Below are positions 33,430 to 60,051 of a stretch of 64,000 nt of DNA, piece by piece (the stretch's first letter is position 1; every line of letters begins with the position of its first letter). A model generated the notes under the pieces. That model ran no database searches. It worked only from the letters and a program-made list of their open reading frames with translations, and was not told the origin of the DNA. The stretch is taken from the NCBI GenBank assembly GCA_963727505.1, contig CAVSGP010000010.1:1-64000 (forward strand), read 5' to 3'. Made by a program: the position numbers and the translations under genes. The DNA is from an uncultured Trueperaceae bacterium (lineage in GTDB: Bacteria; Deinococcota; Deinococci; Deinococcales; Trueperaceae).

Positions 33430-34449
33430 TCAGCGGCTGACCAGCAGCAGGAAGCGGTCCATCCAGCGGTCGGGCAGGAAGCGCGTCAGCACGCCCACCA
33501 CGTGCGCGTCCAGCCCCACCCGATAACGCGTGCGCGCGCGCGGCGCGGTGAGCGCGTGCAGCACCGCACGCGCCACGCCGTCGGGCGCGATGCCGCCCGC
33601 ATCGACGTCGGTCACGCCGCGGGAGATGGAGCGGATGGCGGCCTCGTAGAGCTCCCCCGCCGCTTCGGGCATGCGCGAAAGGCGCGCCTCGCCGGCGCCC
33701 TTCGTCTTGCCCCAGATGGGGGTGCGCACGCGGCCGGGCTCCACGATCGAGACCTGCAGGCCCCAGGGACTGAGCTCGAGCCGGTAGACGTCGCCGAGCG
33801 CCTCGATGGCGAACTTGGACGCCGCGTAGGCGCCCAGCAGCCGCGACGACACCAGCCCGGAGATGGATCCGACGAACACCACGCGACCGTGGCTTCCTCG
33901 GACCGGCGAGCGGCCGGCGCCCAGCGACCCGTCGATGCCGGCCGGAGCGGTCGATGCCCGCACCCCGAAGGCGCGGCGCTGCCCTTCCGCCGCCAGCTGG
34001 ACCTCACGCGCCCGCCGCAGCATCGGCAGCATCGCCTGCGTCACCGCGACCTGGCCGAGCACGTTGACCTCGAGCTGAAGCCGCAGGTCCTCGAGCGGCA
34101 GGAACTCCATGGGCCCCGCCACGACCATGCCGGCGTTGTTCACCACGCCGTGCAGGCCGCGCGCGCCGGTGCGCTCGTCGACGACGGCGGCCGCCCGCGC
34201 GATGCCCTCGGCGTCGGTGATGTCGAACAGCAGCGGCGTGATGCTACCGGTGGCGTCGTCCGGGGCTGCGTCCCGGCGCGCCTCCCGGCCTTCCTGCTCC
34301 AAGCACGCGGCGGACTCCTCGCGCCGCACGCCCGCGAAGACCTCGAAGCCGCGGCGAGCGAGCAGACCGGCGACCGCGCGACCGATCCCGGTCGACGCGC
34401 CGGTCACCAGAACGGCTGGCGGCGTGTCCCCCTCCGAAGCGACATGCAC
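33430..34449 (-). CDS. Short-chain dehydrogenase/reductase
   Basis: TGASTGIG, NNAG, YAASK; TAAGAT -10 just upstream (leaderless). Confidence 0.92.
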   Translation of the reverse strand: MHVASEGDTPPAVLVTGASTGIGRAVAGLLARRGFEVFAGVRREESAACLEQEGREARRDAAPDDATGSITPLLFDITDAEGIARAAAVVDERTGARGLHGVVNNAGMVVAGPMEFLPLEDLRLQLEVNVLGQVAVTQAMLPMLRRAREVQLAAEGQRRAFGVRASTAPAGIDGSLGAGRSPVRGSHGRVVFVGSISGLVSSRLLGAYAASKFAIEALGDVYRLELSPWGLQVSIVEPGRVRTPIWGKTKGAGEARLSRMPEAAGELYEAAIRSISRGVTDVDAGGIAPDGVARAVLHALTAPRARTRYRVGLDAHVVGVLTRFLPDRWMDRFLLLVSR

Positions 34450-34517
34450 GCAGCCATCTTAACGGTGTCGGGTCGGCGACGTTCTCCGGGCCCGCGATCG
34501 CGCGGGGGATCTCCTCC

Positions 34518-34552
34518 CAAAACGCAACCCGCGGGGAGGATTCCCCGCGGGT
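34518..34552 (-). terminator. Intrinsic terminator
   Basis: ACCCGCGGGGA-4-TCCCCGCGGGT followed by TGCGTTTT on the minus strand. Confidence 0.7.
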
Positions 34553-34745
34553 CACCGGCCGAAGGCCGTGAAGGAGAGAGTTGTGCTTCCGGAGCCCCAA
34601 CGCCGGGACGGTCCCGGCTACAGCACGTTCACCCTAACTCGTTTGCCTCATTTGAGGCCCGGAAGCACGTGCACCGGCGTCTCGGCGCCATTTCAGTCCT
34701 TGTCGGTCTCGTGGAGCGGCCTACTCAGCGCCTGCCCACCGGTGC
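34518..34745 (-). ncRNA. Unidentified structured RNA, about 230 nt
   Basis: Own -10 (TAGCAT), two long stem-closed domains, small hairpin, 11-bp terminator hairpin with U-tract; no convincing long ORF. Confidence 0.65.
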
Positions 34746-34751
34746 AACGTA

Positions 34752-34794
34752 ATGCTAGGCGGCCGCATTGTCCGGTGACAGGGACACATGTCCT
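34752..34794 (-). promoter_or_regulatory. GGGAC-N4-GTCCC-type box plus -10 element
   Basis: AGGACATGTGTCCC, 23 nt, TAGCAT on the minus strand. Confidence 0.6.
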
Positions 34795-34842
34795 GCTGCA
34801 CCCGGGACGGCCGGCACCGGGCCGGCTTGCGCTCGGTCCGGA

Positions 34843-34912
34843 GCGCTCAGCTCGGGGCGCTCAGCTCGCGGCGCTCAGCTCGCGGCGCTCAGCTCGGGGC
34901 GCTCAGCTCGCG
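34843..34912. repeat. 14-bp tandem repeat x5 (GCGCTCAGCTCGSG)
   Basis: Seen directly; the last unit contains the thioesterase stop codon. Confidence 0.9.
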
Positions 34913-35343
34913 GGCGCCGACCCCGCCAACAGCGTGGACCGTACGGCGTCCGGCACCGGCACGGGCCGTTGCGCGTCGTAGTCGAACCAGACCACCACCG
35001 ATTCGATGGTGGCCGCCCGTACCCCGTCGGCCCGCACCTCCTGGTGCAGGGCGATGCTGCTGCGCCCGATGCGCGCCACCTCGGTGGCGAGCACCACCCG
35101 GCTGCCCAGACGCACCTGGGCGTGGAAGTCGATGGCGATGCGCGCCAGGATGGGGCCGCCGCCGTCCCAGCTCACACGCCGCATCAGGGCGATGCGGCCG
35201 AGCTCGGCGTAGCTGGAGTACGCCGCGTTGTTGACGTGCCCAAGCGCATCGGTATCGCCGAAGCGCACCTGGATCTCGAGTTCGTGTGGGCCCGGCGCGG
35301 CGACGTCGGGGGTGTGGCTGGCGGCGGGATCCTCCGGGGTCAT
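34903..35343 (-). CDS. Acyl-CoA thioesterase (4HBT/FcbC family)
   Basis: VRFGDTDALGHVNNAAY. Confidence 0.9.
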   Translation of the reverse strand: MTPEDPAASHTPDVAAPGPHELEIQVRFGDTDALGHVNNAAYSSYAELGRIALMRRVSWDGGGPILARIAIDFHAQVRLGSRVVLATEVARIGRSSIALHQEVRADGVRAATIESVVVWFDYDAQRPVPVPDAVRSTLLAGSAPAS

Positions 35344-35526
35344 CAGGCAGGCTCCTCCCGAAATGGGGTGGCCTCGGCGGACGGCGCCGCGGCGGACGTC
35401 AGCCTACCGCGCGCCGCGCCGGTACACGGCGCGCGCGGGGCGCCGTCCGTGTGGTGGCGGGCGCGGCACTCTGAGCGCTATCGTGGACGCACAGTACGCA
35501 CCCATTTGCCCGCGATGGAGGGCAAC

Positions 35527-58490: not shown

Positions 58491-60002
58491 TCACACGGTC
58501 CGCGAGAACGGCGACGGCCCTGTCGACTTCATCCGCAAGTAGCGGTCGAAGACCATGGCCACGTTGCGCGGCAGCAACTTGCCGAGCTCGGCCGCTTCGA
58601 TGCGGTCGGGACCGAAGCGGACCAGCCCCTCGTCGGCCAGCGGGACGAGCGCCTCCAGCTCGCGCGCGAAGTAACGGTCGAAAACGATGCCGTGGCGCGC
58701 CTCCAGGGCCCGCTTATCGATCCGGAAGTGGCACATCCAGTCGCGGATGAGCTGCTGGCGCACGCGGTCGTCCTCGTCGAGGCGGAAGCCGCGCGCCACC
58801 GGGAGGCGGCCGGAATCGACGACGTCCTCGTAGCGGTTCAGCTTCTTCTCGTTCTGCACGTAGGCGCCGCCCACCTCCCCGATGGCGGAGACGCCGAAGC
58901 CCACCATGTCGGGCGCGCGGGCCGTGGTGTAGCCCATGAAGTTGCGCCACAGGCGCCCGTCCTGTTGCGCGCGCACCAGCTCGTCGGTCGGCAGGGCGAA
59001 GTGGTCCATGCCGACGTCGACATAGCCGGCGCTCAGCAGGGACTCGCGCACCAGCTCCAGCAGGGCCAGCTTGGCCTCGCCACGCGGGATCGCCTCCTCG
59101 GGCAACGACCGCTGGTGGGCGTGCGTCTTGGGCAAGAAGGCGAACGAGTAGACGGCAAGCCGATCGGGCCGCAGCTCGAGCACCTGCGCCAGCGTCCGCG
59201 CCAGGCTCACCGGCGTCTGGTAGGGCAAGCCGTAGATGAGGTCGAAGTTGGTGGAGCCGTATCCCAGACGCCTGGCGGCGTCCGTCAGGTCGGCCGTGTG
59301 CTCGACGCTCTGCACCCGGCCGATGCTGCGCTGCACCTCGGGATCGAAGTCCTGGACACCCATCGAGAGACGGTTGAAGCCGAGCGCCCCGAGGCGCTCC
59401 AGGTGCTCCACCGAAGTGACGCGCGGGTCGACCTCGAGGGCGACCTCGGCCTCCGGCAGGATCCGGAAGTGCCGGCGGTAGTGCTCCATCAGCGCGGCCA
59501 GCGCGTCGGGATCGTAGTAGGTGGGCGTGCCCCCGCCGAGGTGGAACTGCGCCACGTCCCGGCGCTCGCCGAGCAGCGGCGCCACCGCGTCGATCTCGCG
59601 GTACAGGCGGTCCAGATAGGCGTCGGCGACGGCCAGGTGGGGCGTGATCACGACGTTGCAGGCGCAGTACAGGCAGCGCTCGGCACAGAAGGGAAGGTGG
59701 GTGTAGAGCGCCAGCGGGAGTTCGGGCGTCTGCGCGGCGCGGGCCAGGGCGGCGCGGTAGTCGTCCTCGCCGAAACCGTCGCTGAACTCGACCGCCGTCG
59801 GGTAGGAGGTGTAGCGCGGACCCGGCCGATCGAGCCGGCGGACGCGCTCGAGCAGGTGGGCGCGCTCGCTGGAGCGCGCGGCATCGTGCGCCGCGCCCAT
59901 CCCGACCCCCCGGTCGAACCGGTCGGAGCTGCCCTCGATCCCGCCTCCACGGCGTTCGCCGTCGTGCCAGGCGTCGTTGGGCGTGCGTTTCGGAGTCGTC
60001 AC
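58491..60002 (-). CDS. hemN: Oxygen-independent coproporphyrinogen III oxidase (radical SAM)
   Basis: GPRYTSYPT, HLPFC...CLYC.C, GMDHFA, RNFMGY. Confidence 0.94.
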   Translation of the reverse strand: MTTPKRTPNDAWHDGERRGGGIEGSSDRFDRGVGMGAAHDAARSSERAHLLERVRRLDRPGPRYTSYPTAVEFSDGFGEDDYRAALARAAQTPELPLALYTHLPFCAERCLYCACNVVITPHLAVADAYLDRLYREIDAVAPLLGERRDVAQFHLGGGTPTYYDPDALAALMEHYRRHFRILPEAEVALEVDPRVTSVEHLERLGALGFNRLSMGVQDFDPEVQRSIGRVQSVEHTADLTDAARRLGYGSTNFDLIYGLPYQTPVSLARTLAQVLELRPDRLAVYSFAFLPKTHAHQRSLPEEAIPRGEAKLALLELVRESLLSAGYVDVGMDHFALPTDELVRAQQDGRLWRNFMGYTTARAPDMVGFGVSAIGEVGGAYVQNEKKLNRYEDVVDSGRLPVARGFRLDEDDRVRQQLIRDWMCHFRIDKRALEARHGIVFDRYFARELEALVPLADEGLVRFGPDRIEAAELGKLLPRNVAMVFDRYLRMKSTGPSPFSRTV

Positions 60003-60008
60003 GGGCCC

Positions 60009-60051
60009 AGTCTAGGTGCGCCCCGGAGGGGGCCGTTGGGACAAATGTCCC
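60009..60051 (-). promoter_or_regulatory. GGGAC-N4-GTCCC box plus -10 element of hemN (leaderless)
   Basis: GGGACATTTGTCCC, 23 nt, TAGACT, 6 nt, GTG. Confidence 0.7.

Follow-up and report, generated by a model that had tools for sequence, protein, structure and literature searches.

Between the genes for a short-chain dehydrogenase/reductase (SDR) and a thioesterase, contig CAVSGP010000010.1 of an uncultured Trueperaceae bacterium (assembly GCA_963727505.1) carries an unannotated locus that is very likely an independent gene for a structured noncoding RNA. The locus spans 34518-34745 on the minus strand of the window, by which we mean the whole 64,000-nt stretch of DNA analysed here; all positions follow the numbering of the window, and the RNA is read on its minus strand. 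The thioesterase gene (34903..35343, minus strand; Pfam 4HBT_2, E = 2e-21) is an upstream neighbour only. The SDR gene lies downstream (33430..34461 including its promoter, minus strand; coding sequence 33430-34449, starting with the GTG at 34449), and its product matches Pfam adh_short at E = 8e-35, with matches to NCBIfam SDR-subfamily models under their cut-offs. The SDR gene has a promoter of its own: TAAGAT at 34461-34456 is followed by 6 bases and then by the GTG, a leaderless arrangement already pointed out in an earlier note made from the letters of this DNA. A pattern search found the corresponding TANNNT-N5-7-(G/A)TG ahead of the SDR gene in 17 of the 18 loci examined.

The RNA is composed of two domains, each closed on its own, followed by an unpaired tract, a small hairpin and a terminator-like stem-loop. 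Domain 1 (34671..34745, minus strand, 75 nt), as defined by the minimum free energy (MFE) fold and by covariation, has a 9-bp closing stem (GCACCGGUG/CGCCGGUGC), an internal loop, a 6-bp GGCGCU/GGCGCC stem and an interior of ~36 nt that is invariant within three genera, numbered g1, g11 and g25 here. Domain 2 (34583..34668, minus strand, 86 nt) is the most widely conserved part and combines a long closing helix with an inner GCCGGGA-N3-UCCCGGC hairpin. In the MFE fold the closing helix is formed by GUGCUUCCGG/CCGGAAGCAC and prolonged by CCUCAA/UUGGGG; the strands of the long helix are GCUUCCGGGCCUC with GGGGCUCCGGAAGC (in its longer form GUGCUUCCGGGCCUCAA with UUGGGGCUCCGGAAGCAC), and the domain also holds a conserved junction, CGAGUUAGGGUGAACGU. 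Next comes the CU-rich tract ACUCUCUCCUUCAC (34568..34581, minus strand), an unpaired, anti-Shine-Dalgarno-like linker and candidate seed. The small hairpin CGGCC-UUC-GGCCG (34556..34568, minus strand) forms helix 8, with 5 pairs, 97.5% pairing and one pair varying on one side, and the terminator-like stem-loop (34518..34555, minus strand; helix 9 in the MFE fold) has a GC-rich stem followed by UUGCGUUUUG. Direct reading and MFE folding thus reproduced the minus-strand sequence and the two-domain fold set out in the earlier note, with one correction: the terminator stem is 14 bp long rather than 11. The fold of 34518-34745 on the minus strand has an MFE of -118.4 kcal/mol, compared with -97.4 +/- 4.9 kcal/mol in 200 shuffles (z = -4.32), none of which was as good; the plus strand was weaker (-109.2 kcal/mol, z = -3.98, 1 of 200 shuffles as good).

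The RNA also has its own conserved promoter. A box, AGGACATGTGTCCC, lies at 34781..34794 (minus strand; family consensus (G)GGAC-N4-GTCCC(TG)), its centre ~42.5 nt upstream of the predicted start, and is followed by the -10 hexamer TAGCAT (34752..34757, minus strand; TANNNT) without a recognisable -35 element. From the position of this hexamer, transcription would be predicted to start at about G34745. The same -10 had been read at 34757-34752 before; it is present and kept as TANNNT in homologues, placed 23-24 nt after GTCCC in all those inspected. Pattern searches located a variant of the box ahead of the RNA at 18 of the 19 genome loci and for 10 of the 11 true metagenome members, so the claim of a separate transcription unit is strengthened by a conserved promoter consisting of box plus TANNNT. 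A box at about -42 without a -35 element would correspond to a class-II-like activator geometry.

Comparison among relatives supports the fold. When 271 bases were used as a BLAST query, 8 of 60 related genomes proved to contain the element, which is also present in two copies in the window's own assembly; the copy in G003 is 100% identical to the window across the 271 bases searched. In an eight-sequence alignment (A3; mean identity 87%) the edges of conservation are sharp, beginning at the palindrome upstream of TAGCAT and ending just past the terminator. RNAalifold on A3 recovered the structure first drawn from the single sequence (68 pairs, 95.6% of cells paired). Changes on both sides affected 13 of the 68 pairs, compared with 4.5 +/- 1.6 in shuffles (0/500), and controls in which partners were slid by 1-3 columns gave 1-6 double-sided pairs and 32-44% pairing. 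These changes fall in the closing stem (3) and inner stem (1) of domain 1, the long helix (3) and inner hairpin (1) of domain 2 and the terminator (5), the last being 100% paired in A3. Covariation analysis, which had been suggested along with the structure, therefore supports the fold, and the two domains are separately closed with helices backed by covariation. The strand is fixed as well because conserved G-U pairs are numerous, and on the opposite strand they would become C-A mismatches, which bears out the initial observation that G-U pairs favour the minus strand. The extended helix of domain 2 gained further support among 23 sequences: 6 of its pairs changed on both sides (0/500 shuffles), and its inner end shows A-U to G-C and A-U to U-A swaps. 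A local hairpin, GCCUC-loop-GAGGC, as drawn in domain 2 by the RNAalifold model R2, had 0 of 5 double-sided pairs and 82% pairing in a test in which the G114 clade was misaligned; on these alignments the extended helix appears to be the better supported of the two.

The RNA appears to be highly expressed, separately from the neighbouring genes. Our evidence consists of metatranscriptome contigs, which carry no strand, level or true ends. In two salt-marsh metatranscriptome runs from two studies (X19 and X20), short contigs lie over domains 1 and 2, in pieces between 34590 and 34735, and the mean word depth within 34581-34765 reaches 1647 (X19) and 7927 (X20). RNA-run depth is 0 both in 34174-34580 (most of the SDR stretch compared and the spacer) and in 34766-35200 (the promoter and the thioesterase gene). 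On the flanks, each RNA run has just one short contig, which lies far inside the SDR gene at 34127-34160 with a depth of 2-2.7. DNA runs do cover the flanks (X4 nearly all of both and X1 parts of both, at ~29x and ~7x), whereas the RNA contigs are essentially confined to the element, in line with expression separate from that of the flanks. At 2 of 85 and 2 of 78 positions the sequence of the dominant RNA contigs departs from that of the window, so their source is a close relative. The tract and terminator (34518-34589) and the first bases (34736-34745) are without RNA contigs, which is not evidence of processing.

Within Trueperaceae, the RNA has a narrow and uneven distribution. A covariance model of the whole RNA (R1) matched in 13 of 128 Trueperaceae genomes, and in two further genera it matched domain 2 only. 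The covariance model of domain 2 (R2) matched in 19 of the 128 genomes, representing 5 of 36 genera: g1 (5/9 genomes), g11 (1/1), g25 (1/1), g37 (3/3) and g12 (8/18). There were no R2 matches among 114 genomes of four sister families of the order. A strict-pattern scan of 185,579 species genomes returned 5 loci only, apparently all in genomes identified before, a number that sets no limit on distribution because the pattern is strict; the strict-pattern scan of metagenome contigs returned 12 loci, comprising 11 true members with the same layout and one chance match. The layout common to the loci is box, 23-24 nt, TANNNT, domain 1, domain 2, usually a terminator, and then the SDR gene.

Comparison of g1/g11/g25, g37 and g12 shows that the domain 1 interior and the domain 2 junction have been replaced, whereas the helix sequences are kept. 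The length of domain 1 is 76-89 nt at most loci, with four exceptions of ~147 nt; although diverged in sequence, it always has a closing stem of its own. In g12 and g37 its place is taken by a diverged domain of 76-148 nt, likewise with its own closing stem. All five genera keep the helix sequences GCUUCCGGG...CCCGGAAGC and GCCGGGA...UCCCGGC. A terminator is present in 15 of the 19 loci and missing from G114, G119, G120 and G112. These four (L065-L068), together with metagenome loci L102 and L110, make up one g12 subclade with a domain 1 of ~147 nt and no terminator, in which a different CU-rich stretch, CCCGUUCUCGU, runs directly into the TAGGAT -10 of the SDR gene. The g37 loci have a peculiarity of their own: three tandem units of ~21 nt (GCACGGAUGUACCGAGCGAGC-like) separate the RNA from the SDR promoter, and in L056 (G071:C6) they lie ~10-150 nt past domain 2. 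Overall, the RNA looks like an insertion in one subclade.

No known RNA family accounts for the element. Rfam 15 (4227 models, which we take to include FnrS, RsaE, 6S, raiA, riboswitches and Y RNA-like models) gave no matches at the gathering threshold in the 64,000-base window. A permissive search with E up to 10 gave four chance-level matches in the window, all on the terminator hairpin, the best being mir-298 with 20.4 bits against a gathering threshold of 80. In seven divergent homologous loci (21.6 kb) there were four sub-gathering matches, all on one terminator, and so the absence of a known family, proposed in the earlier note with an Rfam search as its check, holds for the window and these seven loci at the gathering threshold. 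The signal recognition particle RNA of this genome lies elsewhere (C9:737290). RNA regulators in Trueperaceae are almost unstudied: a full-text literature search on small RNAs in Truepera turned up no publication on such an RNA in the portions of text that it returned. The RNA is thus a new family restricted to a subclade of Trueperaceae (Deinococcota), and a candidate for a new Rfam entry.

The promoter box links the RNA to genes of low-oxygen metabolism. The arrangement of box (at most one mismatch), 22-25 nt and TANNNT occurs at 20 sites in the genome; the reversed sequence has only 3, and five Markov-1 simulations yielded 3-8. Within the window, a perfect box precedes hemN (TIGR00538, 541.6 bits against a cut-off of 325; 58491-60002, minus strand), a leaderless gene whose promoter (58491-60051 with the gene, minus strand) reads box GGGACATTTGTCCC, 23 nt, TAGACT, 6 nt, GTG. 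Elsewhere the box precedes the copper nitrite reductase gene nirK (361 bits against a cut-off of 296) and a gene for a NarG-like alpha subunit of the DMSO-reductase-II family (1039 bits against 985), and further genes behind the best boxes encode pyruvate:ferredoxin oxidoreductase (PFOR), a second HemN-like radical-SAM protein, cytochrome oxidase subunit II (COX2), CtaA, SCO1, the hibernation factor HPF (S30AE), phosphofructokinase (PFK), an aldolase and a DUF2239 protein. The corresponding sites in this genome (G000) are C1:53167, C9:67672, C2:79510, C14:24820, C5:260440, C4:624944, C2:177475, C9:505328, C2:220531 and C4:871008, listed in the order nirK, NarG-like molybdoenzyme, PFOR, COX2-cytochrome c, CtaA, SCO1, HPF, PFK, aldolase and DUF2239. 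Some box sites have no obvious gene behind them (e.g. C5:141048, C4:196843 and C9:609840) and could mark further RNAs.

In five relatives, the perfect box pattern occurs 9, 4, 1, 1 and 1 times, and the backwards control gives 0; in G020 the sole perfect instance is the promoter of the RNA itself. A hemN orthologue was found in one of the five relatives with a 200-residue query, so conservation of the box at hemN rests on G033, where hemN carries a one-mismatch box. In a separate case, L118 (G071:C16:36441-36483, minus strand), a box GGGACGTCCGTCCCTGG identical to the RNA-promoter box of that genome stands before a cytochrome c-like gene (CAACH motif), whose leader measures ~110 nt. Because the same box and -10 precede hemN, nirK, the NarG-like reductase, PFOR, HPF and PFK, induction of the RNA at low oxygen is likely, and the suggestion in the earlier note that it may be hypoxia-induced gains from this shared layout. 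The RNA is probably a member of a low-oxygen regulon. GGGAC-N4-GTCCC, 23-24 nt and TANNNT, often ahead of leaderless genes, define a candidate low-oxygen/denitrification regulon for the family.

Taken together, these data suggest a stand-alone small RNA (sRNA) of ~225-230 nt that is induced by oxygen limitation and pairs in trans, an explanation to which, as a whole, we assign a probability of roughly 0.55. In this scheme, an activator would bind the GGGAC-N4-GTCCC palindrome near -42 and switch on transcription, so that the RNA would be made when oxygen is scarce or during nitrate/nitrite respiration; it may then accumulate because its compact fold makes it stable. The RNA would act in trans by base pairing, which is the weakest step. 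In g1, g11 and g25, the tract ACUCUCUCCUUCAC may serve as the seed for purine-rich ribosome-binding sites, and the structured domains may provide stability or a platform for protein binding. In these genera all 8 aligned homologues carry the tract unchanged, with a predicted mean unpaired probability of 0.80-0.93 in seven of them and 0.31 in G033. Across the genome, the tract finds its best complement in the pnp (polynucleotide phosphorylase) ribosome-binding site, where 13 of 14 bases are complementary, abutting the GTG start (G000:C4:191326-191339, or L087 127-140; the GTG directly follows GUGAAGGAGAGACU). This pnp site, GAAGGAGAGAG, is unusually long, purine-rich and conserved across Trueperaceae genera.

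Several observations weigh against this explanation. The box has no assigned regulator: among the 14 GerE-domain proteins of the genome, C4:872033-872737 was considered since it lies near a box site, but it has no recognisable receiver domain in Pfam and its weak NarL/MadR-like matches fall far below cut-offs, and it was not assigned. The term low oxygen itself derives from the content of the genes behind the box. The two RNA runs may stem from one sampling campaign, and their contigs, which lack strand and ends, meet adapter sequence at 34734/34735 and 34638 rather than at 34745, the predicted +1. A simple consensus scan of 34000-35400 called neither a sigma-70 promoter nor a terminator; this silence is not contrary to the element, since the scan requires a -35 and an unbroken T-run, and the locus has no -35 and an interrupted T-run. 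There is also the second copy in the assembly, on contig C3 (43,983 bases), which is colinear with C10:1110-44517 over 42,290 bases at 82-94% identity. We considered and rejected a paralogous copy: given 44 kb of colinearity that includes the thioesterase-RNA-SDR locus, the C3 copy is probably an orthologue that belongs to a related strain binned together with this one. Alternatively, the assembly could contain a very large duplication.

Other contrary points concern the pairing step. At this place the g37 RNAs lack the CU tract, as do those g12 RNAs that bear a terminator (G118, G113, G020, G111), so the proposed seed is not family-wide; in the G114 group of g12 another CU-rich stretch occupies the tract position. 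The pnp site is equally conserved in genomes without the RNA, and by a rough estimate ~0.4 chance matches with at most one mismatch are expected in the genome, for which reasons pnp is only a lead. Action through Shine-Dalgarno pairing is accordingly a tentative proposal, doubtful in itself but the likeliest of several mechanisms. Finally, at every locus the SDR gene follows the RNA directly, and in G114, G119, G120 and G112 (4 of 19) only ~25 nt and no terminator separate domain 2 from the SDR -10. Transcription must continue into the SDR gene in those four loci, and the RNA of this clade must either be processed out of a longer transcript or form part of one.

This position raises the question of whether the element is a cis-acting leader of the SDR gene. 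It might be a riboswitch or attenuator, or else supply the gene with a second, regulated promoter and a long 5' untranslated region; the box-dependent promoter would then drive the SDR gene through the structured RNA, with the terminator as the regulated step. The constant adjacency on the same strand (19 genome and 11 metagenome loci), the classic riboswitch layout of an aptamer-like part, terminator stem and U-run, the four loci without a separating terminator, and the two mutually exclusive pairings open to domain 2 in every lineage would all fit such a role. However, the SDR gene keeps its leaderless promoter, and there is no consistent Shine-Dalgarno sequence for a leadered SDR mRNA. SDR orthologues were found in two of five RNA-less genomes searched (G014 and G017, from two genera), in the same Fpg-thioesterase-SDR neighbourhood, where a spacer of ~55-60 nt with a leaderless promoter and no RNA precedes the gene. 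The adjacency of RNA and SDR can therefore be explained by descent in a conserved gene order; the 4HBT_2 neighbour itself also occurs in C3, G007, G019 and G033 and, judged from a C-terminal reading, in g12. On reading the sequence, no upstream complement to the 5' arm of the terminator was seen, and an antiterminator partner is not expected since the terminator arms vary freely, whereas the RNA upstream of them either does not vary or shows covariation confined to its own helices. The junctions and loops that would form a ligand pocket are replaced between genera and the helix sequences kept, the opposite of what a pocket would show, and the RNA contigs end before the SDR start, with depth falling from above 100 to 0. 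As the earlier note had supposed, an SDR riboswitch is thus unlikely, and we consider a cis-acting leader of any kind to be improbable. The notion that the locus encodes a 20-residue peptide, MAPRRRCTCFRASNEANELG (34691-34629), its fold being incidental, is rejected. This open reading frame, with an AAGGA upstream, is present in the window and was the alternative offered originally, but it occurs only in the window's own sequence: the ATG is found in one of eight aligned homologues, the others reading AAAGGCG or AACCGCG; G007 and G033 have no open reading frame of at least 18 codons on either strand; and substitutions track base pairing, not codons.

Alternatively, the RNA could be made in bulk under oxygen limitation and act without pairing, through protein binding or otherwise, for instance as a decoy that titrates RNA polymerase, the ribosome or an RNA-binding protein; its conserved helices would then be the working surface and the CU tract incidental. 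We regard this as unlikely, though it is the most credible of the competing explanations: depth in the RNA libraries is very high, helix sequence is what all five genera conserve, and the tract is missing from g37 and part of g12. That no Rfam 6S RNA was detected in the genome would also fit, but the absence of an RF00013 match in the whole genome is uninformative because the same model also misses the Thermus and Deinococcus controls. As a candidate 6S RNA the element was rejected: it has two separately closed domains, its two ends do not pair with each other to form a rod around a central bubble, and its presence in only 5 of 36 genera fits a housekeeping role poorly. No gene for a partner protein is linked to it, either. 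A further reading builds on domain 2, whose 5' segment can pair with a local or a distal copy of the same sequence in every lineage and in which all three segments have changed together in one clade. A bistable two-domain riboregulator might be produced in bulk at oxygen loss, with CUCUCCUU acting as a decoy for Shine-Dalgarno-led mRNAs, or the RNA sensing a small molecule and acting in trans. Such a mechanism seems very unlikely to us; if its decoy form were true, translation would be shifted toward leaderless mRNAs, including the leaderless hemN of the same regulon. The oxygen-responsive, trans-pairing sRNA is our preferred reading over these alternatives.

Near the locus, a 14-nt tandem repeat (34839-34917; 5.6 copies, 93% matches) extends over the thioesterase stop and the spacer that precedes the RNA promoter; a contig from one soil DNA run is shorter by a single 14-base unit of this repeat.

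If the RNA is part of the low-oxygen response, it could serve as a metatranscriptome marker of the low-oxygen state and offer a handle on how the radiation- and salt-tolerant Trueperaceae adapt to anoxic sediments. Several known systems invite comparison. Like transcription-terminating riboswitches, the element has a structured 5' part followed by a terminator hairpin, upstream of a co-oriented gene. It differs from them in having its own regulated promoter, a downstream gene with a leaderless promoter, no antiterminator, junctions that are not conserved across genera, and in being absent before the orthologous genes of sister genera.

A closer likeness may lie with FnrS, an sRNA of enterobacteria that is switched on by an oxygen-sensing activator bound near -41.5 and pairs with ribosome-binding regions of mRNAs. 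The Trueperaceae box near -42 would be the counterpart of that site. FnrS is ~120 nt long, simple in structure and Hfq-dependent, and we know of no Hfq role in the Trueperaceae lineage; the two RNAs share no sequence similarity, and Rfam, presumably with its FnrS model, gave no match. The RoxS/RsaE sRNAs use pyrimidine-rich single-stranded tracts to pair with Shine-Dalgarno sequences, and the pairing logic proposed here for the CU tract would be the same. RoxS/RsaE of Firmicutes is reported to be a nitric-oxide/redox-responsive sRNA (PMC4409812). RoxS is short, with C-rich loops, whereas the Trueperaceae RNA has one linear CU-rich linker between large structured domains, and there is no homology.

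DrrS (MTS1338) of M. tuberculosis, a DosR-regulated sRNA, has a comparable promoter. Its DosR site overlaps the -35 region ahead of a TANNNT-type -10, an arrangement likened to class II CRP promoters, and the RNA accumulates as an unusually stable, structured and processed species (PMC5360333). DrrS is stress-induced and combines a regulator site at the -35 region with a TANNNT -10, as predicted for the Trueperaceae RNA. The box GGGAC-N4-GTCCC (AGGACTTTGGTCCC in g12) also resembles what we take to be the core of the DosR consensus, GGGACTWWAGTCCC, a string that occurs literally in publications. The DosR regulon presumably includes PFK and an HPF/S30AE protein, as the box regulon does. In contrast to DrrS, the Trueperaceae RNA comes from another phylum without sequence or Rfam similarity, measures about twice its length, contains two closed domains and in most cases ends in an intrinsic terminator. 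It is a real and expressed new family of structured RNA, of narrow taxonomic range and of a known general kind: by analogy, it would work most like the regulator-activated sRNAs that respond to oxygen or nitric oxide, while being a member of none of them.

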